A stretch of DNA of 64,000 nucleotides from Kiritimatiellia bacterium (GCA_041673345.1 JBAYXX010000006.1:5357-69356), one strand, 5' to 3'. Positions 1,383 through 57,874 are shown, numbered from the stretch's first letter. Program-made: numbers and translations. Notes: generated by a model not told the origin, from the letters alone.

Positions 1383-2172
1383 GCCATGGCTGAGAAGTCA
1401 GAAGTCAGGAGTCAGGAGTCAGGATCTCCGTGCGTCCGTTGATACCGACACCGATAACGCCCCAAGCTCTAGTACAAAGCAAAGCCCAGGTGATTCGTTC
1501 GCGGGCAATGTGGGAGGGGCATCCTGCCCCTCGGCAGCCTTAGAGGGGCTGGAAGCCCCTCCCACGTTGGATAGAGAAATCAGAGAAATCAGTGCCTGAC
1601 CCTAAGTGCGAGAAATCAGTGCCTGACCCTAAACAGTGCTTAAGCTACGACTAAGTGATTGAGTTATAAGATAAGCCCGCCGCGAGTTACACAGTGAAAG
1701 GCACGCCCTGGGATGTAGGGTTGCTTCTCTGAAGCAATTGCGGATGCCGGTCAGGTGTTCGCCAAAGGCGAGTCATAAGGTTTCATGATCTTTGATTGGC
1801 TCATAGAGCCAACCCTACATTTACAGCCCGAATGGAACTTGCCTTGTCGTTCGGTGTCGCTCATAGAGCGACTACTACACATGCGCTGCGCTTCGAAATG
1901 CAAGCCGTGTCGTTCGTGTAGTAGCCGCTCTATGAGCGGCATCGCTTGACGAGGATGTGCGACGATGCTGGCTGACGATTCCCCGCATGTTCCCAATCGT
2001 CGGCCTCGCAGTGCACTGCGAAAAACGATGGAATAACTCGACCAAATGACTGGAAAAGACAAGGTTCGAGACAAGGTTCGAGACAAGGATCGAGACAAGG
2101 ATCGAGACAAGGATCGAGACAAGGTTCGAGACAAGGTTCGAGATAAGGATAGCATTAATAATAGGAGCACAA
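1383..2172. repeat. Mosaic intergenic repeat block R1 (modules A, B, D plus 7-nt and 12-nt tandem tracts)
   Basis: Shares long near-identical segments with 17305-18045, 34897-35322, 41164-41670 and 56816-57874. Examples are gtgaaagg..gtagggttgcttc..ttggctcatagagccaaccctaca at 1694-1822 and cgacgatgctgg..cccaatcgtc at 1958-2002. Confidence 0.85.
2058..2153 (+). repeat. 12-nt tandem array, about 8 units of gacaagGTtcga / gacaagGAtcga
   Basis: Direct reading: eight head-to-tail units. The array ends 20 nt before the galM ATG. Confidence 0.95.
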
Positions 2173-3288
2173 ATGGATACAATTACTTTTCTTAATGGTT
2201 TTGCGCTGCTGAGCTTGATTGGCATGGCTACCTGTTGTGGCTGTTGTACAACTCCTGTAGTCAAGGTCCCGGCTTTCAGCTCAATCAACGAGTACAGTCT
2301 CATAAACTTGAATGGGGTAGAGGTGCGGTTGACCAACTATGGCGCCAGGCTCGTTTCCATCAAGGTGCCAGACCGCAATGGCAAGTTTGCTGACATCCTA
2401 CTCGGACACAACAGCGCCGAGGAGTATATCAACGCCGGGGATCGTCCGTACTTCGGCAGTGTTGTCGGACGCTATGGCAACCGGATTGCTGGAGGCAGAT
2501 TCACATTGGAGGGCAAAGAGTACACTCTTGCGACCAACAATGGTGAGAACCATCTGCATGGTGGCAACATGGGCTATGACAAGCTGGTCTGGGATGCTGC
2601 AGTCAGCAACAGCAGCGTGATCTTCTCCCTGACCTCCTATGATGGGCAGGAGGGTTATCCCGGCGAGCTGAAGATCAAGGTGACATACACCTTGACAGAA
2701 GCGAATGAGCTGAAGATCTTTTATCAGGCAACGACAGACAAGGCAACACCGATCAATCTAACCAACCACGCCTACTTTAACCTTGCTGACGAAGGCGCAC
2801 CAACCATTCTGGAGCATGAACTGATGCTCAATGCCGACACATTCACCCCAGTGGATGCAACCCTCATCCCGACCGGCGAATTTCGGCCAGTGAAAGGCAC
2901 CCCATTTGATTTCACCACTGCCAAAGCGATTGGGCGGGATATTGCGCAAAAGGACACCCAGCTCGAGTATGGCAACGGCTATGATCACAACTTTGTGCTG
3001 AACAAGGGGGTAAGCGACCTAGCATTGGCGGCAACTCTGTATGAGCCCAAGAGCGGGCGCTGTATGGAGACCTTTACTGAGGAGCCGGGAGTGCAGTTTT
3101 ACAGCGGCAACTTCCTGACCGGCTGCCTGACAGGCAAATCCGGCAAAAAGTATCCCTTTCGCAGTGGACTCTGTCTTGAGACCCAGCACTTTCCTGATAG
3201 CCCGAACCAGAAGAATTTTCCATCGACAATCCTGAGGCCCGGGGAGAAGTACCAGACCACCACAGTGTATAAGTTCTCGATCAGGTGA
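2173..3288 (+). CDS. galM: Aldose 1-epimerase (galactose mutarotase), probably exported
   Basis: 371 aa. Mutarotase signatures NGENHLHGG, LTNHAYFNL and GLCLETQHFPDSPN. Hydrophobic Cys-rich N-terminus LLSLIGMATCCGCC. SD aggag upstream of the ATG. Confidence 0.9.
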   Translation: MDTITFLNGFALLSLIGMATCCGCCTTPVVKVPAFSSINEYSLINLNGVEVRLTNYGARLVSIKVPDRNGKFADILLGHNSAEEYINAGDRPYFGSVVGRYGNRIAGGRFTLEGKEYTLATNNGENHLHGGNMGYDKLVWDAAVSNSSVIFSLTSYDGQEGYPGELKIKVTYTLTEANELKIFYQATTDKATPINLTNHAYFNLADEGAPTILEHELMLNADTFTPVDATLIPTGEFRPVKGTPFDFTTAKAIGRDIAQKDTQLEYGNGYDHNFVLNKGVSDLALAATLYEPKSGRCMETFTEEPGVQFYSGNFLTGCLTGKSGKKYPFRSGLCLETQHFPDSPNQKNFPSTILRPGEKYQTTTVYKFSIR

Positions 3289-3995
3289 GGTAACCTGTGT
3301 TTCTGTTTGATTAATTGTTCTTTCCAAAGGGCAAGACAAACATGCTGGTCCTTAAAAATATGTTGTCGACGGGCTAATCCTAATCGCCATCTTAATCTCA
3401 ATCCTTATCTCTTTAGACCGGCCACAGGCGGACGTTGTTGGATTAAGATTATGATTAGGGTTGTGATTAGGATTAGGATTAGGGTTTTCTAGGGACAGGC
3501 ACTGATTTTCTCCTAGGGCGCGCCTTTCACGAGCCTGGAGCAAAATGCCGCTCGTAGAGCGGCTACTACACCAAACGACAACCCTTACACTCCGCAATGC
3601 AGCGCATGTGTAGTAGTCGCTCTACTAGCGACATCGGCCGACGATGGTGTGCGACGATGTTGATGGACGATTGGGATCATGCGGAAAATCGTCCACCAGC
3701 ATCGTCGCCGCCATCGTAAACCGGAGGCACTGCTGACCTTAGTAGCACCGGTTTCCAACCGGACAGTCCGATTAGAAATCGGACCTACAATGAAGTACCT
3801 CAAGCTTCCAGCTTGAATGAAAATGTTTTCTGTAAGCAAGATGCTTGCACTACTCCATTATCACTTTTACAGTAACGTCTCAATAACCCGCTTCGAAACA
3901 GCCTAAAGGCTGGACAACAAGCCTTACGTAGCAGCCGTTTGTTGTTCACGCTTCAGCGTGCTCTTTGTTCTCTGACTCGTCATTGAGAATTTACC
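3289..3995. repeat. Mosaic intergenic repeat block R2
   Basis: Contains modules A (3608-3720) and C (3745-3790), the gcaagcaag..tcacttttacagtaac.tctcaataacccgctt module (3826-3900, also at 5706-5770), and the ttggaaagaacaattaat module in reverse (3302-3330). Confidence 0.85.
3374..3486. repeat. Imperfect long hairpin made of (NNAATC)n and (GATTNN)n hexamer arms
   Basis: Left arm is ctaatcctaatcgccatcttaatctcaatccttatc (3374-3409). Right arm is gattaagattatgattagggttgtgattaggattaggattaggg (3441-3484). It lies 86 nt after the galM stop. Confidence 0.85.
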
Positions 3996-4499
3996 TTAGT
4001 TAGCTTCAATGCGCTTGACCTCTGATCTCTCGGGCAGTGCTGCCAGGAGTGTTGCCACAGTCGCGGTTTGTCCGGGAACAATGAACTTTGGGTTCAACTC
4101 TGCCAGAGGCTGTAGAACAAAACGACGCAGGTGTGCGCGAGGATGCGGAAGGGTCAGATTGGAGTCAGAGCTGATGATATTGTCGAAGGTGATAATATCA
4201 ATGTCAATGGTTCGCGGCTGATTGGGTGTTTGTCTGACTCGTAGGAGCTGCTCTTCAATTTGATGCACGGCATTTGAAAACTGCTGGGAGGTGAGTTCGG
4301 TTTCAATGATTAACACCGCATTGATAAAGGCCTTGTTTCGGTGCTCGGCGGCAACCTCTACCGGCTCGCTTTCATACAGCGATGAACAGCGTTTCAGCTT
4401 TGTTTTAGGCAGAGCGGCCAGGGCTTGCACGGCTTGGGCGAGCCAGCCTTTGCGGTCACCGAGATTGCTGCCAATTGAGAGAATTGCGGTGTGTGGCAT
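3996..4499 (-). CDS. folK: 2-amino-4-hydroxy-6-hydroxymethyldihydropteridine diphosphokinase (HPPK)
   Basis: 167 aa. HPPK motifs SIGSNLGDR, RTIDIDII and LTLPHPRAHLRRFVL. Confidence 0.9.
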   Translation of the reverse strand: MPHTAILSIGSNLGDRKGWLAQAVQALAALPKTKLKRCSSLYESEPVEVAAEHRNKAFINAVLIIETELTSQQFSNAVHQIEEQLLRVRQTPNQPRTIDIDIITFDNIISSDSNLTLPHPRAHLRRFVLQPLAELNPKFIVPGQTATVATLLAALPERSEVKRIEAN

Positions 4500-4801
4500 T
4501 GCTTTGCTCTGTAAATGACTGTCTATAACTTGATCACCTGGTTATGGTTCGTCTCTGCAACTCGGGGGCGCATCTGTGAATTGGTGCATATTACCGGATA
4601 ACCTTCGAAGTCACTGTTGTCCACCGCATAGCGGAGGACATACTTATATTGCAACCAAAGTAAATCCGCCGTTACACGGTGGATTATTGCGCCGATTCGC
4701 AGGTGCGCCCGGATGGCGGTAATACCTTGTCTCGAACCTTGTCTCTTTCGCCCATCCCAGATCATCGCTGCTTGATTAGGATTACGATTAACAGTTAACA
4801 A

Positions 4802-5611
4802 TTAGATAGCCTCAAACCCGAGCACATGCCGCATGGTATAGATGCCCGGGTGGCGGCTGGCAAGCCAGATGGCAGCGCGCAGGGCTCCTTTGGCAAAGGC
4901 TTTACGTGAGACGGCTTTGTGGGTGATTTCGACACGCTCCTCATCGGCCACAAACATTACAGTATGGTCGCCCACCACCGAACCGCCGCGCAGAGCGTGG
5001 ATCGCGATCTCACCCGAGGGGCGCTCGCCGGTGATACCCTCACGTCCGTAGCAGACCACCTCTGAGAGGTTGACCTCGCGCCCCTGCGCCACTGCCTCAG
5101 CCAGCCCCAGAGCGGTTCCGCTGGGAGCATCCTTCTTGTGTTTGTGGTGCATCTCGACGATCTCGGCATCATAGTCATCCCCCAAAACAGAGGCTGATCG
5201 GCGCACCAGCTCCAGCAATAGGTTGATTCCCAAACTCATGTTGGGCGCCCAGACCACTGCGATATGCGCGGATGCGTCCACAACCGACTGCTTCTCCTGC
5301 TCAGTGAGCCCTGTGGTTCCAAGAACATAACCCTGCTTAAACCTCCGTGCATTGGCTAGGTTGGCCGTGACACAGGTGTGGAAGGTGAAGTCAATGATTA
5401 CCTCCGCACTCTCCGGCCACTCCGTGGTATACGTCAAGGTGCCTGGCACTGCGTCGGAGCTGATATTGGTAAACGCCTTAACAGTTTGGCCAACGGCGGG
5501 GTGGTCAACACGTTCGCAGGCCGCGACAATTTCACAACCGCTGACCGCTCCCGCGCACTCCAGCAGGTTGTATCCCATCCGTCCAGCGGCACCTAGTATA
5601 GCGATTTTCAT
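4802..5611 (-). CDS. dapB: 4-hydroxy-tetrahydrodipicolinate reductase
   Basis: MKIAILGAAGRMG dinucleotide fold and EMHHKHKKDAPSGTA motif. I moved the start to ATG 5611 because the sequence from 5619 upward is a dispersed repeat that also occurs reversed at 45155-45230. Confidence 0.9.
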   Translation of the reverse strand: MKIAILGAAGRMGYNLLECAGAVSGCEIVAACERVDHPAVGQTVKAFTNISSDAVPGTLTYTTEWPESAEVIIDFTFHTCVTANLANARRFKQGYVLGTTGLTEQEKQSVVDASAHIAVVWAPNMSLGINLLLELVRRSASVLGDDYDAEIVEMHHKHKKDAPSGTALGLAEAVAQGREVNLSEVVCYGREGITGERPSGEIAIHALRGGSVVGDHTVMFVADEERVEITHKAVSRKAFAKGALRAAIWLASRHPGIYTMRHVLGFEAI

Positions 5612-5954
5612 AGTTTTTCCTTTAGTTGCTATTCTCTCAACTCCGTCACAAAACAAGAAGTTCAGATAGCCATTTTCATAAGTTGTTGAGTGAAAATATT
5701 CTTTGCAAGCAAGCAGCTTGCACTATTTCACTATCACTTTTACAGTAACTTCTCAATAACCCGCTTTGAAGCAGCCTTCCGTCTTCGCGCTTCGCAACTA
5801 CGCCGAACACGGAAAGCCTGTACTACAAACTTCGTTTCCCCAAACGCATAGCGTTTGTTACTAAAGCAGCGGGCTCATAATCACAAACTTTTCAGTGAGG
5901 GCAAAGACCTTTCACACATCACACAAACTCATTTGGTTGCGGCGACTAGCTGCT
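5612..5954. repeat. Mosaic intergenic repeat block R4
   Basis: 5619-5692 matches the reverse complement of 45155-45230. 5706-5770 matches 3826-3900. 5837-5878 (ccaaacgcatagcgtttgttactaaagcagcgggctc) matches 21228-21270 and the reverse of 45080-45120. Confidence 0.85.
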
Positions 5955-6824
5955 TTAGAGCAGTCCAGCACTTTGCAGGGCGCACGAGAGTTTTTGGCGA
6001 TCCTCTGAGGCGAGTTTGCAGAGTGGCAGGCGGTAAATTTCGTGGATCTTACCCATCATAGCCAACGCCGATTTCACAGGGATCGGGTTGGTATCAATAA
6101 AAAGGGTGGCAAACAGCGGGTAGTTAGCACGATGCAGCTCCAATGCTTTAACGAAATCGCCATCCAGCGCGAGCCGCACCATACGGGACACTGCTTGCGG
6201 TATGATGTTAGCTGCCACGCTTATCACACCGGCGGCGCCGACACTGAGCATAGGGAGCGCCAAGCTGTCATCACCCGAGACAACGGTGATGTCACAGATA
6301 TTACGGATCGCGCTGACGCGCTCCACGCTGCCGCCCGCCTCTTTTACAGCCACGATTTTGGGATGGCTTGCCAGACGCTGAATCACGCTGAGGGGAATCT
6401 CCCGGGAAGTCCGCCCCGGGACATTGTAAAGAACCACAGGCACGCCCAGATCAGCGATGGCTGTAAAGTGCTGATAAAGCCCCTCCGCGTTAGGCTTGTT
6501 ATAGTATGGGGTCACCTGCAACGTGGCATCAACACCCATGCCCAGCAGCTCTTGAGTGAGCGAGATGGCTTCACTGGTTGAGTTTGCACCAGTGCCTGCG
6601 ATGATCTGCACTTTGCCAGCGGCAGCTTCAACTGTGGTGGCGATCACTTTCAGGTGTTCATCGACCTCAAGTGTGGGTGATTCACCAGTGGTGCCAACAG
6701 GGACGAGGCCTTCGACTCCATTTTCAACCTGCCACTGGACGAGTTGCCGCAGTGCGCCGTAATCAACACTCTGGTCTTGGTTAAACGGGGTTACGATCGC
6801 TGTGTATGTTCCTGATAAAGTCAT
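5955..6824 (-). CDS. dapA: 4-hydroxy-tetrahydrodipicolinate synthase
   Basis: DapA pattern VPVGTTGES, YNVPGRT and VAVKEAGG (Schiff-base Lys region). Internal ATG 6824 (MTLSGTYTAIVTPF) gives the typical length. Confidence 0.9.
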   Translation of the reverse strand: MTLSGTYTAIVTPFNQDQSVDYGALRQLVQWQVENGVEGLVPVGTTGESPTLEVDEHLKVIATTVEAAAGKVQIIAGTGANSTSEAISLTQELLGMGVDATLQVTPYYNKPNAEGLYQHFTAIADLGVPVVLYNVPGRTSREIPLSVIQRLASHPKIVAVKEAGGSVERVSAIRNICDITVVSGDDSLALPMLSVGAAGVISVAANIIPQAVSRMVRLALDGDFVKALELHRANYPLFATLFIDTNPIPVKSALAMMGKIHEIYRLPLCKLASEDRQKLSCALQSAGLL

Positions 6825-6974
6825 AAGAATCCTTGTGTTTTGCCTTGTATTATGGGCTAAAACGTGTGTTAAGGTCAACAATAAAGGGTTCTATGCCGCA
6901 GTTACTATTATTTCGCTTTGCATCAGGCCGCCCAAGATAGTATGATAAACGTTATTAATTAAGAAAGATTTCCA

Positions 6975-7301
6975 ATGAAGATATGTCCTTATTGCGCTGA
7001 AGAAATTCAGGATGCTGCAATTAAATGCAAGCACTGTGGTGAATTTCTGGATGAACGCGCCCAGCCAGCCTTGCCCGACAACACGATACCGTGGTACTAC
7101 CGCACAACTTTTATTGTGATCGCTCTCTGCTGTGTCGGCCCGCTGGCCCTGCCGCTGCTATGGTTATGCCCGCAGGCCTCACAGGTTGCTAAAGCTGTTT
7201 GGACAGCCATCATTCTTATCATAACCTATGTCTCCATCATCGCTATGGGTAAACTTGTAGGAACCATCGAACAGTTTTACCAGCAGATGAACGCATTTTA
7301 A
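6975..7301 (+). CDS. Small membrane protein with an N-terminal zinc ribbon (hypothetical)
   Basis: 108 aa. CPYC..CKHC zinc ribbon followed by two hydrophobic helices. Confidence 0.6.
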   Translation: MKICPYCAEEIQDAAIKCKHCGEFLDERAQPALPDNTIPWYYRTTFIVIALCCVGPLALPLLWLCPQASQVAKAVWTAIILIITYVSIIAMGKLVGTIEQFYQQMNAF

Positions 7302-7329
7302 TTTTACAATTTACAGAAAGGACACGCCG

Positions 7330-8442: not shown

Positions 8443-8522
8443 GGCATAAGAGGTGGAAGAGTCTCTGCGCTCCGTGGTTAAAAATCAGCAGAGCGCACCC
8501 TCTTAGCACACAGCAAAGCCGT

Positions 8523-9377: not shown

Positions 9378-9982
9378 AGGTCAGCTTTCCTTTCAATGGA
9401 GGGTGGGTAATTCATAATAAAAAACTACAATTGATCGTTATTATTGCATAAAGATGGATAGGTTGGAAAGGTTTAACGGGAAATTCTAAAGTTTGAGAGT
9501 GAAGAGTTGGCACCTCAGGCGCGGGAGCGAAAAGCGCGTGCCAATCGGTTGCATTACGAGCCGCAGCTGTAGGGCGCGGGCCTTGACCGCGCCAGCGAAC
9601 GAAAGTTTAGCGCAACACGAGCCGAAACGCTTGGCTATAGTCTATAAACGCGCCAACCGCGGTCACGGCCCGCGGCTACAGTGCTGCGCAAAAGCGTAGG
9701 TCCGGTTTCCAACCGGACCTACTGGAGTTTGGCTTCGCCATCGGTTGACGATAGCGGCGACGATGCTGGTCGACGAGCCCCCGCATGATCCCAATCGTCC
9801 ACCAACATCGCTTGCCACGCCGAACGACTGGAAGGCGGGCCGCACAGCATCGTCGGCCGATGCCGCTCAACGAGCGGCATATGTCGCTCGCAGAGCGACT
9901 ACTATATTAGAGTTAGACGATTCCGCAGATAGACAACTTTTTGGAAAGAACAATTAATTGTTTTTTCTAGTCGCCTAAGGGC
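9378..9982. repeat. Mosaic intergenic repeat block R5
   Basis: Module C at 9697-9722 and module A reversed at 9740-9900. gcagctgtagggcgcgggcc (9563-9595) and ccgcggtcacggcccgcggctacagtgctgcgca (9657-9692) recur at 57496-57530 and 57590-57625. gacaactttttggaaagaacaattaat at 9933-9958. Confidence 0.85.
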
Positions 9983-11305
9983 CTAAATGCAGCTTTCACC
10001 TGTCACCCCCCGACTGGCAAGAGCGCCGATAAGCACGGCCTTGTGCAGAGCTGGCTGGGCGGTAAGGTTGAAGTCGCAACGTTCACCACTGCTGATAGCG
10101 CGCAAAAAGCGTGCAGGCGCGGTGACAGAACGCGATGGTGGCACTGTGAGTGAGTTCCATAGAGCATGGCGCTCGAAATCGATCATGCGCGGCGAGCCAA
10201 TAAACCCCAGGTAGTGCTGCTGACAGGCCGTGCCAGCAACCAGCCAAGTGCCGCGCTCGCCGACCAGCAACACACCAGAGCCAGGCAAACGTCCCAAAGT
10301 GGCGCGCGCCTGTTGCAGAAGGTCATCGACTGGCAATGCGCCGCCGTCGTACCAGAAAAGCTCGACTCGGTCTCTCTGAATTGCAGAGTTGCAAACCCAG
10401 CGCAGAGTGGTGGATTGCGGATAGCTGACATCAGTACCGCCGCGGAAATTGAGTCGTGTAACGCTCTTAGGCACACTCAATTCAAGCGTGGCGAAAGGGA
10501 AGCTCAGCAACTGGCAGCCAGCATCCCCGAGCGTGCCGCCACCAAAGTCGCACCAACCACGCCAATTAAACTTATGATAGACAAAGCGCTTGTAGGGACG
10601 GGGCTGGGCACCTGCGAGCCACAGGTCCCAAGCCAGGCCAGCGGGCACGGGGTCGCTGCCACTAGGCGGCACCCCGCCCTGCGGCCAGATCGGTCCGTTG
10701 CTCCAGATGTGCACCTGCGAGATTTTGCCGATCACCCCAGTTGCCATCCCAGCCCGGCCGCGCAGTGCTGGCTCACAATCGATGTTCAACTCACCGCAGA
10801 AGAGATGGCGGCGGGCACGGTGTACCGCTCCCTCCAGAGTGGCCAGCTCCTGCAATGTGTGTGTAACTGGAGTTTCGAGATAGAGGTGGCAGCCTGCCTG
10901 CAAAGCACGCAGGGCCTGCATGGCATGGCCGTGGTCAGGGGTCGCGATCACGGCGCCATCCAGGGTGCCAAGGGTGTCGAACATAACCCGGTAATCCTGG
11001 AAGGTCTGCAGATCAGGAAATCGCGGGGCGAGCAGCTCACGGGCAGTGCTCAACTCGCGCTCATCTACATCACATATCGCAGCAATCAGCGCCCCTGACG
11101 CACTGAAATAACGCAGCAGAGGTGCGCCCGCACCGCCCACACCAACCAAAGCCAATCGCGGCGGCGCAGTAGACATGGGCGCAGCGAAAGCGCGGCGCAC
11201 AGGTTTTGTGCGAATAAGAGAGGCGCAGCCGCCAGTGGCGGCTGCGCCCGCGCTCGCAAGCGCTAATTTCATGAAATCGCGACGGTTGTTATTCTCGGTG
11301 TTCAT
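9983..11305 (-). CDS. Gfo/Idh/MocA-family oxidoreductase, TAT-exported
   Basis: 440 aa. NRRDFMKLALASAGAAATGG signal. LALVGVGGAG Rossmann start, ATPDHGH, and an ETPV (EKP-like) motif. Confidence 0.8.
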   Translation of the reverse strand: MNTENNNRRDFMKLALASAGAAATGGCASLIRTKPVRRAFAAPMSTAPPRLALVGVGGAGAPLLRYFSASGALIAAICDVDERELSTARELLAPRFPDLQTFQDYRVMFDTLGTLDGAVIATPDHGHAMQALRALQAGCHLYLETPVTHTLQELATLEGAVHRARRHLFCGELNIDCEPALRGRAGMATGVIGKISQVHIWSNGPIWPQGGVPPSGSDPVPAGLAWDLWLAGAQPRPYKRFVYHKFNWRGWCDFGGGTLGDAGCQLLSFPFATLELSVPKSVTRLNFRGGTDVSYPQSTTLRWVCNSAIQRDRVELFWYDGGALPVDDLLQQARATLGRLPGSGVLLVGERGTWLVAGTACQQHYLGFIGSPRMIDFERHALWNSLTVPPSRSVTAPARFLRAISSGERCDFNLTAQPALHKAVLIGALASRGVTGESCI

Positions 11306-11321
11306 AGCGGGAATGATACAG

Positions 11322-12011: not shown

Positions 12012-12043
12012 TGTGTGATCTCTCTAAATGCATAATTTTTTTA

Positions 12044-15190: not shown

Positions 15191-15343
15191 GGCAACGATC
15201 TCTCTTTTAGGCACAAATTATCTAAATTGAATTATTCATTATACAAAAAAACTGTGCTGTTCCGCAAGAGCGAGGGAATGTTTCTCAACGGGCTTCAATA
15301 TGGGCAACAGCGAAGAATCTGTGGAACAGGATTAGGATTAAGA

Positions 15344-16087: not shown

Positions 16088-16134
16088 CTTCCAAAACCCA
16101 AAATCTGTAATATGAAATCCAAAACCCAAAATAT

Positions 16135-17304: not shown

Positions 17305-18045
17305 AATCTACCATAGTCTGTCGAGGCTTGGGCGCATTTGCGCCGGCCGCTTGACCTGCAAGCTTCATCAAAGTTGAAACTGTAGAGTTGGCGGCACCTG
17401 TCCGGCGTAGTTCCGCCATGCCGCGGCGTAGCGGCGTAGCCCCGCTTGCAGGCGAAGCCGGGTTGCGCGCGAAGCTAGACTGCGGGACGAAGGCGGATGA
17501 GCCAAACAAAGATTATGAAAACCCATGGTGCGCCTTTGACGAACAGCCAGCCGGTGTTCGCTAATTGCTTCAGAGAAGCAACCCTACACCCTTGTAGGTG
17601 CTTTTCACATGCCTGTTGCAAAATGCCGCTCACAGAGCGGCTACTACACCGAACGATAATCCTTGCATTCCGCAGTGTACCGCATGTGTAGTAGTCGCTC
17701 TATGAGCGACATCGGCCGACGATGCTGTGCGACGATGCTGGTGGACGATTGGGATCATGCGAGATCATGCGGGAACTCGTCCGCCAACATCGTCGCCGCT
17801 ATCGTCAATCAAAGGCGCAGCTGACCTTTGTAGGTCCGGTTTCCAACCGGACGTGTCCGATTGGAAATCGGACCTACGTTTTTGTGCAAGACAAACATGT
17901 TGGTACTTAAAAACATGTTGTCGGGGACCAATCTTAATCTTAGTCTTAATCCCAATCCTTATCTATCCATCCATCCTAGATCAACGTTTTTTGATTAGGA
18001 TTATGATTAAGATTGTGATTAAGAACCCTAAGTGCGGATCTAGAT
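17305..18045. repeat. Mosaic intergenic repeat block R6 (near full-length composite: modules K, B, A, C and a GATTNN hairpin)
   Basis: 17305-17880 is colinear with the reverse complement of 41164-41670, with indels. Hexamer hairpin arms at 17929-17963 and 17993-18023. Confidence 0.9.
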
Positions 18046-18615: not shown

Positions 18616-18714
18616 AAAACACCTCCTATGTTAGCCGCCTAAGCAGCTTCGTTCTTACTCTTTTTGCCATAATCTCTAACACTCGTTAGAGACAAAAATT
18701 ATTTGCAACCCCTG

Positions 18715-20448: not shown

Positions 20449-21354
20449 TCAAGCCTCCAAAAAGGATAATCTAATAAAAACACTCGAAAATCACAGGTCG
20501 AGATGGTTATAGAGTACATGTATTAAGGCCTGATTGTCAAGGGGATTGAGCGGCAATCTTAAACTCTGTTGAATTGTAATATGAAATGCGACAACACATT
20601 GGAGAAAGGAAAAGCCACATGGAACAGCTGAATATTAGCACAAGCCAAAAAGTTGTTTCTCGAACGTTTATAGGCGTTTAGTGTAGTAGTCGCTCTATGA
20701 GAGATAAAAAAATTGGTTGCGGCTTTGCCGCGCTAGACCCTCTGTGGCTAATTTTTTTAACGCGTATACACGTTCCGAATAATAAATGAGGGTATGACAG
20801 ACGCTCTCTCCGACAAAGTTCAAGACAAAGTTCGTGCCAAAGCTGACCTATTGCCCGGGGTCGGGGTCGCTATCGGAATCGGTATCGAAAAACGCGTAAA
20901 AACGACCCCGATGCCGACTCCGACCCCGACTCCGAGTGGCATGGCAGCACCTATCCACGCCGCATTCTCAATTTTTCATCTGCCAGGGAAATATCCTAAG
21001 GAGAGATGGGGAGTTGTCAAGCACAATGAAGTTTGTCGCATTTAACGTTGCAATCCCACCAGCAGCCCTCGGATCCGGGGCCGAAATCGGAGTCAACATC
21101 GGGTAATGCCTACCACATTTTACCCATCAAGCTCCCGGCGCAGCATCGCCGTAACCACCTTTCAACACCGGGGAGTTCGCTGCGTTATTTTGAGGTAAAA
21201 ATCCTAGAGGCGAACCTCTTAAACTCATTCCCAAAAACGCATAGCGTTTGTTACTAAAGCAGCGGGCTCTCAACCATGCAACTCTTAATAAGGGCGCAGA
21301 ACTTTCGCACACTGCACAAACTCAATTTAGTTGTAACGGAACGCTGCTTTAGCG
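20449..21354. repeat. Mosaic intergenic repeat block R7
   Basis: gtgtagtagtcgctctatgag at 20684-20704. Inverted (tcgNNN)n arms at 20857-20888 and 20903-20935. tttgtcgcatttaacgttgcaatcc at 21033-21060. Module ccaaacgcatagcgtttgttactaaagcagcgggctc at 21228-21270. Confidence 0.8.
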
Positions 21355-22755: not shown

Positions 22756-22955
22756 ATAAATTCCTCTCTCTTTTTCACATATCACATCGAAACAATTTGG
22801 TTGCCTGTCTGTGCATAGTACGCAGCCAGGCAACAAAAAACTGTCGCAGGTTAAATGCTTATTCGTTATGGAGATTAATATTATCGCAAAAAAATTAATT
22901 AAAGAAGAGTAAAATTTTGAAGGCAGACAACTGCACAATATGATATATTTATCTT

Positions 22956-25705: not shown

Positions 25706-25784
25706 CATTGGAAGTGATGGGGCGGGCGACTCTTTCCCACAGTTCGGGGTCGCGAATGCGTGCAAAGTTCATGAAAGCATTACA

Positions 25785-32574: not shown

Positions 32575-32654
32575 AATGGTCACGCAAACCAATGGTCACG
32601 CAAACCAATGGTCACGCAAACCAATGGTCACGCAAACCAATGGACGCGTAAACC
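32575..32654 (+). repeat. 16-nt tandem array, 5 units of aatggtcacgcaaacc (last unit degenerate)
   Basis: Direct reading. Preceded by the 19-nt palindrome gtgaccatttaatggtcac (32565-32583). Confidence 0.95.
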
Positions 32655-32690
32655 AACCCAAAATCGCAGTTTTTTGCACAAATCTAAAAA

Positions 32691-34896: not shown

Positions 34897-35322
34897 TTTG
34901 AAGGTCAAACGCACCCGACCCCGAGTTGCATAGTGAAAGGTACACCGTGGGGTGTAGGGTTGCTTCTGCCTTGTCCGCCGTAGCCTTGGCGAAGGAGGAA
35001 GAAGCAATTGCGGATACTGGGCAGGTATTCGCCAAAGACGCCCCATGGGATTTCATGATCTTTGATTGGCTCTTCCGTCTTCGTCCCGCAAGCGGAACTA
35101 CGCCGGACAAGCACCGCCAACCCTACACTTTCAACCATAATGAAGTTTGCTTTGTCATTCGGTGTAGTCGCCGCTTTACGAGCGGCGTCGGTTGACGATG
35201 ATGTGCGACGATGCTGGTTGATGATTAAAGCCCACTTTCAGTTATACGTGAGCAGTAATGTTTTACAAACAAAAATCGAAGTTATGGGCAAGGTTCGAGG
35301 CAAGGTTTAAGAAAGGTAGATT
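34897..35322. repeat. Mosaic intergenic repeat block R8, inserted between nrdD and nrdG
   Basis: Module B with an internal insertion (34933-35135), module A fragment (35160-35225), and ggcaaggttcgaggcaaggtt (35287-35307). Confidence 0.85.
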
Positions 35323-37388: not shown

Positions 37389-37410
37389 TCTTCGGGTGTT
37401 AATCTTCGGG

Positions 37411-37439: not shown

Positions 37440-37469
37440 TTTGAACTTCGACGGTGAAACAGTCCGTCA

Positions 37470-37612
37470 GATCGGAATAATAAACGGAAGTCCGTGAGAT
37501 TCGGACGCGGTCGCGCCACTGTAAAAAGCTACGACCTCCCAGATACCATGCATCAGCAGAAGGTGGGAGGAAGGTTTGAAGCTCTAAGCCAGGAGACGTG
37601 TTATTCGGATAC
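37470..37612 (+). promoter_or_regulatory. Cobalamin (B12) riboswitch aptamer
   Basis: ggaagtccgtgagattcggacgcggtcgc then GCCACTG (37515-37521), gggaggaagg, and the B12-box-like aagccaggagacgtg (37586-37600). P1-like pairing between ggaataa (37474-37480) and ttattc (37601-37606). Confidence 0.8.
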
Positions 37613-37669
37613 TGCAAGATTCCTCCGCGGGATATGAGGATCAGGAGTATTGAGACATTGTTTCATATT

Positions 37670-37710
37670 GCTTCGGATTCCATATGAGAACTCCGAAGTT
37701 TTTTGTTTTT
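37670..37710 (+). terminator. Intrinsic terminator (riboswitch expression platform)
   Basis: gcttcggattc / gaactccgaag stem followed by ttttttgttttt. Confidence 0.75.
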
Positions 37711-37757
37711 AAGGTTCCGCCCTAACACCAACATAACCAAGGTAAAGGCATGGAGCT

Positions 37758-39017
37758 ATGAAAGCAAATACTATCGCACTAACACTGACCCTTCTGAGCG
37801 CATCCGCTCTCTATCTCGACGCGGCACCAACGCCCGGCAAACCCACTTACATCATCCAGGAGCTGGATAACTCTGCGGGAACATTCACAACCTACGGCGG
37901 TTTGACCAAGAATGGCGATGTTCTTTACTACGGCAACTATGACACAGTGAGGCAGTATGACCTGGCAGGGGCGACCAACTCGGTTTACGCAACCACAGTG
38001 GGCAATGCCGACACTAAAGGGCTGGCTAAGATTGGTTCAACCCTGTATATGGCGTTGGACACATCCTATAATGCTCCCTATCCCTCAAGTCTCGGCACAG
38101 TTGACCCAGCCACTGGTTTCACTGCAACTCTGGTGAGCGGTAAAGAGCAGGGTGAGACAACCTACTCGATCTATGACGCAACGCTCAACAACGGCGAGTA
38201 TTATTTTGTCGCGGCCCCTGGAACCATTAACACTAACAGTCAGTCGGGTGCAACTGGCACCCGCATCTATCGCTATAATAACGCTGATCCGAGTGCTCCG
38301 GTTGAAATCGCCAACATCGGCGGCTCCTCCGGCGGCATTGCCTTCGACACTGCGGGCAACCTTTACTATGCGTCGCAGAACTGGGGTCAAGGCATCCTGA
38401 GATTTAATGCCGTAAATGTCGCGCGCGGTGGGCTGACCGCAGCCGACGGCGCAACTGTGGCGGATGTTACCGCAGGTTATCTTGGATTTTTGCCTGACGG
38501 CCATTTGGTCGCCACAACCGGCTGGGGTGTCAGCTTGGATGTTTTCGATATCAACACTGGTGCCAAGCGCAGAACAATTGCCACTGTTCCATCCGACTGG
38601 TCTGAATCAATTGGCAAATTTGTGGTCGATGGCACCACGCTCTATGTCGCCCATACCGACTGGAACGCGTATACTGGCAATCTCTATGCGATTAACCTTA
38701 TTGAGCCCGCAGGCTATGCGAGTTGGGTCACGGACAATTTTCCCGTCACCTACCCCGGTGATGACGTTGACAGCGATGGCGATGGCTCCGCCAACTACGC
38801 TGAGTTCGTGGCCGGTACATCGCCAACCGACAAATTGGATGTGTTCACCATAAATATCGAGATGACCGATGACCTGCCAACCCTGAGCTGGACTCCCGAC
38901 AAAGTTGCTGGCCGCAGCTACACGCTGCAAGGGCGCGAATCTCTTGCAGCCGGAGGCTGGGGCGCTACGAATGCCAACTCGCGCTTTTTCCGAGTTAAGG
39001 TCCAGTTGAGTCAGTAA
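37758..39017 (+). CDS. Secreted beta-propeller-like protein (NHL/SGL-type repeats) with a Ca-binding D-x-D-G-D-G motif and a C-terminal FxRxxV module
   Basis: Signal peptide MKANTIALTLTLLSASALYLDA. Repeats such as GIAFDTAGNLYYASQNWGQGILRF. C-terminus DVDSDGDGSANYAEFVAGTSP...SRFFRVKVQL. First gene after the B12 riboswitch. Confidence 0.7.
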   Translation: MKANTIALTLTLLSASALYLDAAPTPGKPTYIIQELDNSAGTFTTYGGLTKNGDVLYYGNYDTVRQYDLAGATNSVYATTVGNADTKGLAKIGSTLYMALDTSYNAPYPSSLGTVDPATGFTATLVSGKEQGETTYSIYDATLNNGEYYFVAAPGTINTNSQSGATGTRIYRYNNADPSAPVEIANIGGSSGGIAFDTAGNLYYASQNWGQGILRFNAVNVARGGLTAADGATVADVTAGYLGFLPDGHLVATTGWGVSLDVFDINTGAKRRTIATVPSDWSESIGKFVVDGTTLYVAHTDWNAYTGNLYAINLIEPAGYASWVTDNFPVTYPGDDVDSDGDGSANYAEFVAGTSPTDKLDVFTINIEMTDDLPTLSWTPDKVAGRSYTLQGRESLAAGGWGATNANSRFFRVKVQLSQ

Positions 39018-39042
39018 CAGAGTCAGGGGCGGTAAGCAATTA

Positions 39043-39083
39043 ACCAGGTCACTAAGTCACCAGGTCACCGAGTCACCAGGTCA
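39043..39083 (+). repeat. 8-nt tandem tract (GTCACNNN, about 5 units)
   Basis: accaggtcactaagtcaccaggtcaccgagtcaccaggtca. Ends 24 nt before the receptor ATG. Confidence 0.9.
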
Positions 39084-39107
39084 AAAAAACAGCTTACCGC
39101 CAAGCCC

Positions 39108-41163: not shown

Positions 41164-41670
41164 TGGCGCGGAGTGAAGAAGTGCGCGAGTGCGTAAGTGC
41201 GATAGTGCGCGAATGAAAAGGTCGCGCCGTTGGCGTGGGGCAAAGTAGGTCCGATTTCCAATCGGACATCTCCGGTTGGAAACCGGAGCTATAGAAGTCG
41301 CCTTCGCCTTCGGTTTACGATAGCGGCGACGATGCTGGTTGACGAGCCCCCGCACGATCCCAATCGTCCAGCAACATCGTCGCACAGCATCGTCGGCGTG
41401 TTATGATTTAGTTCGTGAAAGGCGCGCCCTGAGGTGTAGGGTTGCTTCTACGAAGCAATTTGAGGGTGCCGGGCGGCTGTTCGTCAAAGGCGCGCCAAGG
41501 GATTTCATAATCTTTGCTTGGCTCATAGAGCCAACCCTACAGTTTCAACTTGGATGAAGCTTGCAGGTAGTGCGACAGGCGCAAATGCGCCAAAGGCTAC
41601 AGGCAATAACTCGACAGACAACTTTTTGGAAAGAACAATTAATAGATGTAAAAAAAGAATAGGAGCAACA
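41164..41670. repeat. Mosaic intergenic repeat block R9 (reverse-oriented copy of R6)
   Basis: 8-nt tract NAGTGCGN x4 (41171-41215), module C (41236-41285), module A reversed (41290-41400), module B (41415-41550), and gacaactttttggaaagaacaattaat (41618-41645). Confidence 0.9.
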
Positions 41671-43404: not shown

Positions 43405-43630
43405 GATTGTCTGTTGTAGCTTGACTAGTATTTTATGATTTAGTTTGTGAAGAGTGCGCCCTGGGAGCTGGATTGCAACGTAAATGCGACAAACGTCATT
43501 ATGCTTGACAACCTTTTTAAGATCAATGTACAGGGTTTATAGAAATAATATTGCTCTGCGTACTCTACCGGCTCTGCGAGGGCAAATTCAGCTGTTCAAT
43601 TTTTCTGATTAACTCTATAATGTGCGCTAA

Positions 43631-45076: not shown

Positions 45077-45293
45077 TAAGTTCAGAGCCCGCTGCTTTAG
45101 TAACAAACGTTACGCGTTTGGGAAAATGCCTTTAAATGCCACTTTAATCTCTTTCAATCAACAACTTATGACGACGACTGTCTGAACTTCTTGTTTTTTA
45201 CGACAGGAGTTGAGAGAATAGCAACTAAAGTTCAAGAGTTTTAAAGCGGCTTTCCGATTCCCTTATCGCCCTGTTTGGTTTATAGTGATCTAC
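45077..45293. repeat. Mosaic intergenic repeat block R10
   Basis: 45080-45120 is the reverse of ccaaacgc.tagcgtttgttactaaagcagcgggctc. 45155-45230 is the reverse of 5619-5692. Confidence 0.85.
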
Positions 45294-46457: not shown

Positions 46458-46595
46458 GTGTTTAGATTTGTACAATCAGCGAAAAAAGTGAGAAACAGGG
46501 AAAAAGTTTAAAGAGCTGTCGGATCAACTTAAACTTGCCAATTCTGCCATCTTGGAAATAAGTTCAATGCGTACTGATAACGAGTAAGCCTTAAA

Positions 46596-47537: not shown

Positions 47538-47691
47538 GATTAAGAGTATAAAGATACCAACCGAATAAAACGACAATAAAAATCAAAAGGTGCAAAAGAA
47601 ATATCAAAAGGTGTATGGCGTTGTGATAGCAACTGTGGTTAACTCAAGACAACTCAACTAAGAGTTATGCAATCAATGAGAGGATGGTTAA

Positions 47692-51612: not shown

Positions 51613-51631
51613 TCCTATCGATGCAGTTTAC

Positions 51632-53938: not shown

Positions 53939-53945
53939 GGAACGA

Positions 53946-54160
53946 GGTCAGAAACAAAGAACCTACCAGGTGATCGTAGTCAGCACACCGGAATTACTGG
54001 CAGCCGGAGAGGGTGATCTCTGGGATAGCGGAAAAGTCAGTTCCGATCAAACTCTACATATTGTCTATGCTGGTTCCACTCTGAAATCGCGTCAGCAGTG
54101 CCACTGAAAAGTCCGCGTTTGGAATAAAGACGACCGTCCCTCCCACTGGAGCTCTCCTTA
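53946..54160 (+). pseudogene. Fragment of a second GH78 rhamnosidase (N-terminal domain piece with an in-frame TGA)
   Basis: Translates to YQVIVVSTPELLAAGEGDLWDSGKVSSDQTLHIVYAGSTLKSRQQCH*KVRVWNKDDRPSHWS, the conserved Bac_rhamnosid_N stretch. It has no start codon, TGA at 54105-54107 replaces the conserved Trp, and similarity is lost after about 54160. Confidence 0.7.
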
Positions 54161-54261
54161 TAGTAGGTCTGAAGTTATAAACAGGCTGGAGCGGCGGGCC
54201 ACCAAAAGCTCCAAGGCTCAGCCTGTTAATAACTTCGCTGGCAAAAATTTGCTTCAAGCAG

Positions 54262-54852
54262 GTATATTGTGTACGATTTTAAAAGACACGCATCGACCGG
54301 GGACGAACCCGCCTGTCTGATTCACGAAATCTAAACGCAGATTTTCGCCCCGGCCGAGGCGCTTTAACACCAAACAAATACTCTGGATGCATATTTACAA
54401 TGAATCTACTATAAGGATTTCGACGTGTTAAAGCTAGCGTGTTTTTCATGAAACACAAAAAAAGGAGTGCTACGATGAACATGAATGATTCTATTTTGGT
54501 GGGCCTTGACTGGGCAGACAAGAAGCATGATATCTGTTGGCGCGACATCGACACAGGAGAGACTCAAATAAAGGTCCTTAAACACAGACCTGAACTGATC
54601 AACGAGTGGGTCTGTAACCTGATATCAAGGTATCCGGGAAAGCGTATAGCAGTCTGCTTGGAACAAACTCGAGGGCCTGTCGTCTACGCTTTGATGGGAT
54701 ACGACGCAGTCGATATTTACCCTGTTAACCCGTCGACTATGTCGGACTACAGAAAGGCTTTCAGCCCAAGTGATGCAAAGGATGATCCAGGGGATGCGGC
54801 TTTGATGCTTGAGTTGCTTGAACGTCACCCTGAATCTTTAAAGTTATTGGAT
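54262..54852 (+). mobile_element. IS110-family element remnant: about 210-nt structured 5' non-coding end plus a truncated DEDD recombinase (first ~126 aa only)
   Basis: From ATG 54475: MNMNDSILVGLDWADKKHDICW..IAVCLEQTRGP..DIYPVNPSTMSDYRKAFSPSDAKDDPGDAALMLELL is the IS110 N-terminal DEDD domain. Similarity ends near 54852 and the C-terminal Transposase_20 domain is absent. Confidence 0.8.
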
Positions 54853-54982
54853 GCTTTCCCCTGTCAACGCTTCGCTATCCCCTCGCGGAAGATCAACGCA
54901 TCTGCCTATGCGGCCACGCAGGCAGGCCTGCCTGTGTGCCAGCACAGGCAAAGTGATGTTCTCCCATTTTTTGTTGGCCGAA

Positions 54983-55198
54983 CTATTTTTTCCGATAAAC
55001 ATCTTTACGGTCTTGAATTCTCAGAATTAGAACGGAGTCATCAATAATTACAAAAATCACACAATACTCACCAACTCGGTACTTACGCATACCTGCAAAG
55101 GAACCGCTGAGCACAGGAAAACGCTGCGGGGTATGAACAAGATCCTTATCAATCTTATCCATGATCCTTTTTGCATTATCCTTGCTGATGCGGTCAAT
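54983..55198 (-). pseudogene. RelE/ParE-family toxin remnant (5'-degraded)
   Basis: Minus-strand translation IDRISKDNAKRIMDKIDKDLVHTPQRFPVLSGSFAGMRKYRVGEYCVIFVIIDDSVLILRIQDRKDVYRKK*. There is no in-frame start upstream of the core: a stop lies 10 codons upstream, and a frameshifted ATG ORF (MSEGRLKILFAKNHN*) sits at 55241. Confidence 0.6.
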
Positions 55199-55916
55199 TG
55201 TGATTTTTGGCGAACAATATTTTTAACCGGCCTTCACTCATCCAGTCACCACTTTAAAAGCACACACAAGTGCCTTGACTCTTCAACTGGGCTTCAACTA
55301 AAATTCAACCGTATTAAAGAAAGCGTTTTTCCATCAAGTAACGCTTATTCGGATCTACTAAAAACGCCTGTGCGACATGCAACTACATGTACTGCTCAGT
55401 CTGTTCGTACCTAGAAAATTTAAAGCGCAGAGTCCCGTGTTAAAATTGCAAGTCATGTTTTAAGAGTGATCTTATGATAAGGGTATTTCAAGCGATTAGC
55501 GACCCTGCGTAGCAGGGATGAAATACCCTTATCCTTTTGCGGAGATTCGCGGGCAAAAAACTCTGTGCCTTTGTGAGAGATCAAAAACGTACATAAAAAA
55601 CAAGAAATTGAATGATAGTAGTACAGTGTCCACCCAATCCACCTTTGCGTTCAAGTAAAACCGCACCCAAGCCCGACTCCCGACACGAGACCCGCGACTC
55701 GTTGACTCGGCACAGCCACAAAGCACTGGCATCAGACGGCTTCCAGCCTGTGCAGCAGCAGCCGAGCTAGCGTAGCAATGCGAAGGCACTCTCCCCAGTT
55801 CATCTTTTCAGTGCCCGTCCGTGTGAGTTCGTGCGAGTCCGTGCGAGTTCGTGACCGTCTGTGTTTGTCCGTGTTGCTAACACGCTTCGAAATTCCGATC
55901 AGGCGCATCGGCTTTG

Positions 55917-56249
55917 TTAGAATTCCCCTTCAGGGGTACGGTTCAGGATCACGTCCATATCGTACTTTCCCCGCACCCTCACACAAAACGCGAATCGATG
56001 CACCTGCTGCTCCTCCTCAATGAAACGCGCGTACTTCTTCTTTGCTTTGGCCAAGACGTACCCGGAGTAGATGGCCTCATCAGGGAACGAGGCCGTGGGA
56101 GCATAGTTATATCTGAGTGTCCATGCCTCATCACCGGACACGAAGCAGTGCCGATAGAGCTGTTCGCCGAGCAGTTCGTCCAGAACGGCTCCAACTTTAC
56201 TCCGGATTTTCATCTGCACGAAATCCTTGTACATCTTTTCAGTCATCAT
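55917..56249 (-). CDS. Hypothetical protein (110 aa), family not recognised
   Basis: Intact ORF with ggagac 5 nt upstream of ATGATG. It is embedded among TA and IS remnants. Confidence 0.45.
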   Translation of the reverse strand: MMTEKMYKDFVQMKIRSKVGAVLDELLGEQLYRHCFVSGDEAWTLRYNYAPTASFPDEAIYSGYVLAKAKKKYARFIEEEQQVHRFAFCVRVRGKYDMDVILNRTPEGEF

Positions 56250-56528
56250 GTCTCCATTCTAACAATATTATAAACCGGCCTTCAAGCATAATGGCCCTTG
56301 CACGAAAAAATGACAAGTTTGCCCTCATCAATCATCATTCGCCGACCGCGTCCGCCGGAGACACATCGTGCGAAGGCGGAAAGCGGATGGATCTCTCTGG
56401 CGAAGGACTTATCATTCGCCAGGGTGCCTCCTTCTTCATGTGTTTCCTGTTAGTTGACGTCTTGCCCGGCATACGTCAGAACTCACCGATTCGCCAAAGT
56501 GCGATTCGGTAGCCACTTGTTCGCTTAA

Positions 56529-56815
56529 TCATACAATTTCGAAACGGAGCTGTTTTCCCAACGCCTTGGCAAAACTCTCAAGTGTCGACAACTTGATATC
56601 CTCCTTAAATAGTCTTTCTTACGTCCTTCAGCAATTACAATGGCTTGCTGGGGTACCTTCTGCGTTTTCTTTCCTTAACTGGACATTGGATAATCAACAG
56701 GCAAGCCTACCGCACGCTGAAGCGCAAAATTCCCAGAGGGATGCTCCAAACATCCTTAAGACGCAGCTCGGAGAGGTCAGCACCGCGCAAGGCGTGCTTT
56801 TTTAGAAACAGCATA
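56529..56815 (-). pseudogene. XRE-family HTH antitoxin remnant (multiple frameshifts)
   Basis: The C-terminal frame reads DIKLSTLESFAKALGKQLRFEIV*, a typical XRE antitoxin tail. Upstream pieces TQKVPQQAIVIAEGRKKDYL and LSELRLKD lie in other frames. Confidence 0.45.
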
Positions 56816-57874
56816 ATCTCGTCAACAGACAGTTGAAGATAACGGCGGCGATGCTGGTGGATGAGCTCCCGCATGATCCCAATCGTTCACCAACCTCGTC
56901 GCACAGTATCGGCGGCCGTTGTTTGCCTAGGATTGTGGTTCAGCCCGTGAAAGGTGGGCCCTGGGGTGTAGGGTTGCTTCTATGAAGCAATTAGTTGACA
57001 TCAGGTGTTTGTTTGCCAAAGGCACACCATAGGATTTCATGATCTTTGTTTGGCTCATAGAGCCAACCCTACAGTTTCAACCAGGATGAAGCTTACCAAT
57101 CGCGAGCAAGCCTTGCCGTTCGTGTAGTAGCCGCTCTACTTGTCGGGCATAGTTCCGCCATGCCACGGCGTAGCCCCGCTTGCGGACGAAGCCGGGTTGC
57201 GGGACGACGCCTGTAGAGCGGCATTGGTTGACGATGATGTGCGACTAGTGACACGTCACTAGAAAAAGTCGAAGTTATAGGCAAGTCCGCCGCGCGGCTA
57301 CGCCGCGAAAAAACGATGAGGTAACTCGACAAAATGGGCAGGTTATGGGCAACGTGGGAGGGGCATCCTGCCCCTCGGCAGCCTCAGAGGGGCTGGAAGC
57401 CCCTCCCACGTTAGATAGTGAAATCAGTGTCTGTCCCTAAGTCGTCACTGCAGTGCGTGCCGTAGGGACGCGCCAGCCGAGTGATTAGCAGGTCGAAGCT
57501 GTAGGGCGCGGGCCGTGAACGCGCCGGCGGGTAAAAGTGTGGTGCTTCGTGAGTCGGAACGCTTGACGATTGGTCATAAAAGCACCACCCCGCGGTCACG
57601 GCCCGCGGCTACAGTGCTGCGCAGGACGTAGGTCCGATTTCCAATCGGACATGTCCGGTTGGAAACCGGACCTACAGACGTTCATCGCCGCTATCGTCAA
57701 CCGGAGGCCTGGCCTCGCTGGACAAGGATTGCGATTAAGATTGTGATTAGGATGTGCATCCCTCCTAATCGTAATCCTAATCGCAATCCTAATCAAACAA
57801 CGGTGGTTTTCAGTTATGTGCGACTAGTGACACGTCACTAGAAAAAGTCGAAGCTACAGGCAAGCCCGCCGCAT
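56816..57874. repeat. Mosaic intergenic repeat block R11 (largest; modules A, B, K, D, I, J, C, a GATTNN hairpin and a 55-nt direct repeat pair)
   Basis: Module coordinates are given in the findings. 55-nt direct repeats at 57237-57291 and 57816-57870. Hexamer hairpin at 57727-57794. Confidence 0.9.

Follow-up and report, generated by a model that had tools for sequence, protein, structure and literature searches.

Introduction

GTAG-tagged repetitive extragenic palindromes (REPs) are defined by an unpaired tag, a short stem-loop and the formation of inverted dimers (Di Nocera 2013, PMC3733652). The published criteria are a stem of 6-13 bp, a short loop, a length of 20-40 nt, many copies, and a tag GTAG, GTGG or GTRG at one end. 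Several families may be present in a genome, as head-to-head (HH) and tail-to-tail (TT) dimers, heterodimers and clusters; they favour co-directional and convergent gaps, and insertions into palindromes have been reported. In the Planctomycetes-Verrucomicrobia-Chlamydiae (PVC) group the hosts are Opitutus terrae, in which one family is mostly GTGG, Rhodopirellula baltica and Planctomyces (PMC3733652). Here we describe the repeat clusters that fill long intergenic gaps in a stretch of 64,000 nt (the window) from a Kiritimatiellia bacterium (GCA_041673345.1 JBAYXX010000006.1:5357-69356). The window has a G+C content of 52% and belongs to a metagenome-assembled contig (ENA ERZ27250894 k141_85040).

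About half of the repeated hairpins carry an unpaired GT[AG]G tag and form inverted doublets, and because of this they were placed in the superfamily of GTAG-tagged REPs and REPINs (REP doublets forming hairpins). Their stem-loop size and copy number, one-sided tag, inverted dimers and extragenic placement, the four features of GTAG REPs that we tested, are all those described for such elements. It is probable that the blocks are GTAG-tagged REP/REPIN clusters and that their likely mover is a Y1/HUH transposase of the REP-associated tyrosine transposase (RAYT) type, encoded elsewhere. The elements are new sequence families of an established kind, from a class that had not been surveyed, and are unusually diverse, dense and nested. 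In the library searched, we found no paper linking Kiritimatiellae to REPs.

With GTAG-18 to -20 of O. terrae and GTAG-20/-21 of R. baltica, the window units share the GTAG/GTGG tag, a stem of 6-9 bp and a short loop. HH and TT dimers, heterodimers, the coexistence of several families, the preference for certain gaps and nesting in palindromes are likewise common to both. However, the stems and loops found here are new (GTAGGTCCG and TTTCCAA are absent from the supplementary files of PMC3733652), Kiritimatiellae were outside that survey, at least eight families occur together at a local density of about 10%, and a cognate REPtron was not found in the window and ~1.25 Mb of related loci. The REPIN-RAYT systems of Pseudomonas and enterobacteria (Bertels & Rainey 2011; Nunvar 2010) resemble the present one in their long-hairpin doublets, copy number and 5' GT[AG]G, and a single-copy Y1 transposase family exists in this lineage too. 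Nevertheless, the RAYT is flanked by its own REPINs in those systems, whereas here this was seen only for a different REP family, at the loci L157 and L187.

The bacterial interspersed mosaic elements (BIMEs) of Escherichia coli also form extragenic clusters in which REPs alternate with short conserved motifs in recurring patterns. They are made of one REP family (Y, Z1, Z2) with defined linkers, whereas the window combines REPs of many unrelated families with untagged palindromes and nested insertions. Conserved linkers and a recurring order of modules (B-D-A-C, described below) are found here as well, but the sequences are unrelated and the likeness is one of architecture only. Large intergenic mosaics of several families in variable order are shared with the dRS3/RS arrays with Correia elements of Neisseria; dRS3, however, is a CGTC-tagged phage integration site, while the elements described here are GTAG-tagged.

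Tagged hairpin units and inverted doublets

The basic unit is a hairpin of 20-25 nt, with a perfect stem of 6-8 bp, a loop of 2-5 nt and an unpaired GT[AG]G on one fixed side. The tag was present in 15 of the 30 perfect hairpin cores that occur at least three times in the window and the loci from genome scans. Together with the doublets it assigns these cores to the superfamily described in PMC3733652, where a previous sequence-only reading of the window, which overlooked both features, could name no repeat family. The tagged side bore the tag in, for example, 55 of 58 and 48 of 53 copies, and the opposite side is almost never tagged; the chance rate, by our own estimate, is ~5% per side. At least eight families with unrelated stems have the tag in common. 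The consensus units are as follows:

Family C: GTAG-GTCCG(G/A)TT-TCC-AA(C/T)CGGAC
Family D: GTAG-TAG(C/T)CGCTC-NNN-GAGCG(G/A)C
Family B-left: GTAG-GGTTGCTTC-NNN-GAAGCAA
Family B-right: GTAG-GGTTGGCTC-NNN-GAGCCAA
Family G: GTGG-GAGGGGC-(TTCCA/ATCCT)-GCCCCTC
Family E: GTAG-GGCGCGGGCC..., paired with GTAG-CCGCGGGCC...
Family F: GTAG-TGCAAGCA-TCT-TGCTTGCA
Family K: GGCGTAG-TTCCGC-TT-GCGGGAC

When up to three substitutions were allowed, families C, D, B-left/right, G, E, F and J were matched by 38 units of the window and by over 200 units of the loci from genome scans.

Units are joined in inverted doublets, with the tags outside in C, B, G and E and inside in D; the dimers are of the TT type in D and of the HH type in B, G and E. 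Adjacent pairs of family C number 38, of which 33 are head-to-head with spacers of 3-4 nt and 5 are in tandem, and 32 of them combine the two stem types of this family. Doublets fold into long hairpins better than shuffled sequence does (z from -3.4 to -6.6). They are themselves terminal inverted repeats (TIRs), although no obvious ones had been reported before for these blocks. The stem of family C shows covariation: among 106 units the variable stem pair is A..T in 56 and G..C in 50, and it is uncompensated in none.

D-type REPs were also seen as head-to-tail tandem arrays in metagenome contigs, with a period of 35 nt in L087 (200-397) and of ~107 nt in L083 (13566-14014). Repeat finders could take such arrays for CRISPR-like ones.

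Occurrence in related genomes

The REP families of the window recur in the Kiritimatiellae metagenome-assembled genome (MAG) STCSWMC_123 and in metagenomes. When genomes, one for each species, were scanned with the half-site of module C (GTAGGTCCGRTTTCCAAYCGGAC), at least 57 loci were returned. Family C loci in STCSWMC_123 numbered at least 45, and family D was found at no fewer than 115 loci of metagenomes. Synteny links the window to STCSWMC_123, the identity being 97% over 58078-62731 (L058) and 89% over a uvrD fragment (L002), and its source is therefore a member of the Kiritimatiellae, in the PVC group.

An exact 23-nt C-type REP was observed, in addition, in MAGs with a G+C content of 60-63% that bear the labels Victivallales, Planctomycetia and Acidobacteriota (L008, L018, L022, L032, L035, L036, L040, L047, L048, L052 and L053). 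These MAGs carry family C without the other families of the window, which could be due to old conservation, horizontal spread or mis-binning.

Organisation, nesting and turnover of the clusters

Comparison of the window with itself by BLAST gave 132 non-self high-scoring segment pairs, in both orientations, with 76-98% identity and E values down to 1e-79. The repeats cover 4.5 kb (7.1%) by this measure, and 6.1 kb (9.5%) once ~320 kb of sister-genome loci were added to the database, in agreement with the proportion of roughly a tenth given by the sequence-only reading. All major blocks lie within the ten gaps that it had listed, every one of which contains repeats, and further small blocks were found outside them at 4613-4791, 39020-39101 and 55415-55625. 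The proposal that the ten gaps are built from the same modules applies only in part: 5612-5954, 20449-21354 and 45077-45293 mostly share another set, consisting of a terminator-like module (T) and module F, and therefore there are two partly separate sets. Modules A, B, C and K were found again at the positions given for them. A partial B at 43436-43472 proved to be the left lead of B without a hairpin, and to the two known sites of K a third, short copy has to be added, which had been overlooked (35075-35116).

All large clusters occupy gaps whose flanking genes are co-directional or convergent. Three divergent gaps were checked (6882-6974, 22939-22955 and 47577-47691), and these are free of repeats. 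Pfam confirmed that the block at 34897-35322 is inside nrdD-nrdG, as had been stated. The 5612-5954 gap separates dapB from dapA and is a second repeat-containing gap between functionally linked genes. The clusters, gap by gap, are the following:

1503-2150, uvrD / aldose epimerase gap: G doublet, GTGG-tagged, 1510-1565; B doublet 1715-1818; D doublet 1856-1940; partial module A 1958-2002; 12-mer tandem array 2057-2148
3319-3997, epimerase / folK gap, convergent: palindromic array of the GATTAGG type; D doublet 3547-3632; module A 3631-3721; C doublet 3742-3788; untagged hairpin TCAAGCTTCCAGCTTGA; F unit 3831-3853
4613-4791, folK / dapB gap: small block
5615-5971, dapB / dapA gap: F-type module 5686-5777 with a unit at 5704-5726; T module 5836-5876 (- strand), terminator-like, sense to dapA
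9530-9994: E doublet 9569-9679; lone C unit 9696-9718; module A reversed 9736-9810; D-type hairpin pair at ~9860-9905, of which only the 9883-9905 unit, with tag ATAG, matches the family
17324-18024, dinB / infC gap, the largest mosaic: B reversed, its right hairpin split by a long K (17396-17496) and its left unit at 17565-17587; D doublet 17625-17710; module A 17709-17810; C doublet 17830-17877; GATTAAG-type palindromic array 17886-18024
20556-21353, gap between thrS and a beta-CASP RNase gene, sparser: one degenerate D unit 20683-20705; T module 21219-21290 (- strand), sense to the beta-CASP RNase gene
34914-35229, nrdD / nrdG gap: B doublet with both hairpin loops split, by an insert at 34969-34999 and by a short K at 35075-35116; then a D unit 35164-35186 and a partial module A
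41165-41643, the 17305 mosaic in reverse, without K and D: C doublet 41245-41292; module A reversed 41313-41400; B doublet 41436-41540
45080-45231 (+ strand): T module 45080-45119, 4 nt past the der stop; then a module that also occurs at 5620-5695
56832-57872, 1-kb mosaic ahead of clpB, left part: module A reversed 56832-56922; B doublet 56968-57072; D unit split by a long K (57122-57230)
56832-57872, middle: 57-nt module 57237-57293, with a second copy at 57816-57872; G doublet 57354-57409
56832-57872, right part: E doublet 57501-57612; C doublet 57628-57675; palindromic array 57725-57794

Nesting is best seen in module K, a small tagged hairpin with a short form of ~37 nt and a long form of ~71 nt, in which a second tagged hairpin is enclosed in the first. 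K always occupies the apex of another hairpin, which may be B-right, D or a third host hairpin in L009 and L056; inside D the junction reads CTC-TA^N-GAG. Comparison of filled and empty sites revealed no target duplication at the nested K insertions, and the earlier statement to this effect stands. Small inserts split both loops of B in the nrdD-nrdG gap (34955-35128).

The order and orientation of the modules are variable. B is reversed relative to D-A-C at 17305 and forward at 1694, and the order in the 56816 gap is A (reversed)-B-D. Read in reverse, the segment 41164-41670 follows the sequence of 17305-17880, from which it differs by lacking the K insertion and the D doublet. This colinearity had been noticed before, and the description of the blocks as BIME-like mosaics holds, with extragenic modules that recur in differing order, orientation and completeness. 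Composites of ~280-590 nt in the order B-D-A-C recur as whole units. The D-A-C order is found at both 3522-3788 and 17600-17877, with 83% identity; the 392-nt composite at 3476-3867 has a 94% identical copy in the sister genome (L014), which has no flanking sequence in common with the window, and a ~590-nt composite has a match of 75% in L030. Since composites recur whole at L014 and L030 and D-A-C is repeated, blocks are also copied as units.

Turnover between close genomes is evident at L058, the locus orthologous to 56273-58300, where the flanks are 94-97% identical and the module content differs. A gene fragment stands there in place of module A and the left part of B, the right-hand breakpoint being the loop of the B-right hairpin, and the 57816-57872 module is replaced together with its surroundings. 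The differences at L058 and L014 are compatible with transposition and also with recombination.

Untagged modules and terminator-like sites

Module A, a palindrome of ~90 nt whose arms measure ~20-30 bp, has no tag. Its assignment to the CGTC-tagged class was ruled out, as these arms contrast with a stem of 8-9 bp and a loop of 4-5 nt. Short tandem or palindromic arrays of the GATTAGG type, of 12-mers and of 16-mers are present as well. Perfect tandem arrays were observed for a 12-mer (7.7 repeats at 2057-2148) and for 16-mers (5.1 repeats at 32575-32656 and 2.6 at 39043-39083), and those at 2057-2148 and 32575-32656 are upstream of gene starts, namely of the aldose epimerase gene (2173) and of nrdD (32788).

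The T module (GAGCCCGCTGCTTTAGTAACAAACGCTATGCGTTTTTGGG) has 19 copies in the window and the loci and ends in a hairpin followed by a T-run. Most copies are sense-oriented and lie 4-100 nt past a long open reading frame (ORF), and the module appears to be a repeated terminator-like 3' module. For the REPs in general the situation is different. Terminator-like sites numbered 26, against an expectation of 18.8 +/- 5, so that the enrichment is not clear, and T-tails are missing from most REPs. The idea that the REPs are intrinsic terminators was rejected on these two grounds, and a general terminator role, the T module excepted, is therefore unsupported. Effects on mRNA 3' ends or stability are possible, for instance in nrdD-nrdG and dapA-dapB.

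The putative transposase and alternative explanations

In the mechanism that we favour, the tagged units would be non-autonomous elements moving as single-stranded DNA. A RAYT-type Y1/HUH tyrosine transposase encoded elsewhere would recognise the hairpin and the tag, and would cut and rejoin the units. New copies would prefer sites downstream of genes and the single-stranded apex of existing hairpins, and such insertions would give rise to nested, mosaic, BIME-like clusters, whole composites being then copied or converted as units. Mobilisation in trans by a Y1 transposase appears to be the best-supported mechanism; the enzyme acting on the GTAG families would be of this type, and these families may be mobile at present.

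Several results must be taken into account that weigh against this proposal. About half of the repeated hairpins, as well as module A, are without a tag, and whole composites could have spread by recombination and not by transposition. Five queries or profiles detected no Y1 gene in the window. An unbiased search of ~1.25 Mb of related loci for ORFs of at least 100 aa between inverted GTAG units of the same family, 350-1600 nt apart, returned a single hit, which encodes no recognisable protein, and in the window and these loci no transposase is flanked by families C, D, B, G, E, F or K. The three types of Y1 gene that were found in related loci were all discarded as movers of the window's elements, for the reasons given below.

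A motif scan of the sister-genome loci yielded two Y1_Tnp genes, in L037 and L026, and a query with E. coli RayT matched none of the ORFs of the loci. The L037 gene is frameshifted and is flanked by a perfect 26-nt TIR (GGGGTCAGCCC...), the sequence of which (GGGGTCAG...) agrees with the 'TIRYT' motif GGGGWSAS known from the literature. This element has a C doublet at a distance of 25-90 nt, and the REPs of the window are absent from the flanks of its relatives. As these relatives are mostly on contigs of ~1 kb, a multicopy element resembling an insertion sequence (IS) is suggested. A gene of this type, flanked by TIRs and not by REPs, frameshifted and multicopy, was not retained as the mover.

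The L026 gene (818-1762, - strand) encodes a Y1 domain with ~150 extra C-terminal residues. Proteins of this type are ~50% identical across Kiritimatiellae and Pontiella (relatives P0121-P0240), and the neighbours are ordinary genes. A C doublet is found 670 nt from the gene, but it has no flanking REPs, either there or in three other genomes, and was not retained as a REP-flanked mover. A search of PDB sequences with the whole protein gave nothing significant. A GTAG hairpin occurs inside its coding sequence, at 1362-1387.

The third type was found at L157, a metagenome locus from the family D scan, and is a RAYT according to the NCBIfam profile REP_Tyr_transpos (86.8 bits, cut-off 80). Arrays of its own REP, GGGAGCGCCRACGTCCYCGTYGGC, lie on both sides of it, the contig also carries C, D and J units, and the same pairing is seen in another organism at L187. 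Because the RAYTs of L157 and L187 are paired with their own REPs, REP-RAYT biology exists in this lineage. The REP family of L157 is absent from the window, for which reason this RAYT was set aside. More than 2600 relatives of the L157-type family were recorded at E < 1e-10. In L185 (2501-3241) and L186 (2501-3253), RAYTs of this type are located between hsdS and hsdM of type I restriction-modification loci.

The window does contain one transposase relic. While the earlier statement that it has no transposase is correct for Y1 genes, a truncated ORF of the IS110 family is present at 54439-55047 (+ strand; Pfam DEDD_Tnp_IS110, E = 1e-13). It lies in ~2.9 kb without long ORFs (53939-56815) that resemble decayed mobile DNA and adjoin the 1-kb repeat mosaic at 56832. 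No link between this fragment and the repeats was found.

The inverted-repeat structure and the size of the doublets and of module A would fit miniature inverted-repeat transposable elements (MITEs), deletion derivatives of a small number of DDE insertion sequences, or of a single one, that have TIRs, leave target-site duplications and move by cut-and-paste, and the IS110 fragment could be cited in their favour, even though IS110 is a DEDD and not a classical DDE element. This origin is nevertheless very unlikely, as the nested K insertions have no target duplications, IS ends leave unexplained why unrelated stems of 20-25 nt hairpins bear one tag, and no full IS with matching ends was found in the window or the 1.25 Mb of loci. 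It is unlikely, in turn, that the repeats are mainly RNA or regulatory elements selected by the host, such as terminators, 3' stabilisers or protein-binding sites, and spread by recombination. The clusters follow genes and are absent from divergent promoter gaps, the T module has the orientation, position and T-run that a terminator would have in most of its 19 copies, the stem pair of family C covaries perfectly, and composites are copied as units, all of which would agree with such a function. On the other hand, no Rfam match was obtained even at E = 0.1, the enrichment of terminator-like sites is not clear, T-tails are absent from most REPs, and the doublets are palindromic and found in both orientations. 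A strand-fixed GTAG tag common to unrelated stems, together with nesting in hairpin loops, fits the recognition site of an enzyme better than a multitude of separate RNA functions.

The tagged hairpins could also be mobile through another enzyme, either the Kiritimatiellae Y1 protein with a C-terminal domain or an IS110-type recombinase that targets hairpins. We give this little credence. In its favour are the result that ~1.25 Mb of loci contained no RAYT with GTAG REPs on its flanks, the conservation of the L026-type fusion (~50%) and its position 670 nt from a C doublet, and the IS110 fragment in the window; yet the genomes were sampled only in part and a classical REPtron may have been missed, the L026-type gene is without flanking REPs in three other genomes, and nothing ties the IS110 remnant to the modules. 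More specifically, GTAG elements might be inserted into hairpin apices, giving nested 'hairpin-in-hairpin' structures, by an unrecognised enzyme that is not a classical REP-flanked RAYT, which we regard as distinctly doubtful; a candidate would be the Y1-like protein with the extra C-terminal domain conserved in Kiritimatiellae. If that were true, family C, whose sequence is the same in MAGs ranging from 49-63% GC, would be the sign of a partnership that is old and conserved, or else of a function for the host.

Implications and minor features

As GTAG-tagged REP/REPIN clusters, the repeats of the window extend the catalogue of such elements to Kiritimatiellae and do not open a new class of element. 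With at least eight tagged families, nesting and a density of ~10%, they offer a possible test bed for coexisting REP families and transposases. Their practical effects are broken metagenome assemblies, false tRNA calls and inflated numbers of spurious intergenic ORFs.

A false tRNA call of this kind was met in the window:

57609-57679 (+ strand): tRNA-Gly(tcc) according to ARAGORN, a false positive that is really a C doublet

ARAGORN made the same call on another C doublet (L040 2416-2487), and the tRNA assignment was rejected. The genuine tRNA-Gly(TCC) of L031 differs from the C doublet in its anticodon stem; the call arises because the C-doublet loop TTTCCAA mimics an anticodon loop. An assignment by Rfam, which the sequence-only reading had named as a possible refutation of its view that the modules belong to no described family, did not appear for any repeat, either at the gathering threshold or at E <= 0.1. 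The sole Rfam hit in the window was a cobalamin riboswitch (RF00174, 61.9 bits) at 37440-37615 (+ strand), upstream of the gene at 37758-39017.

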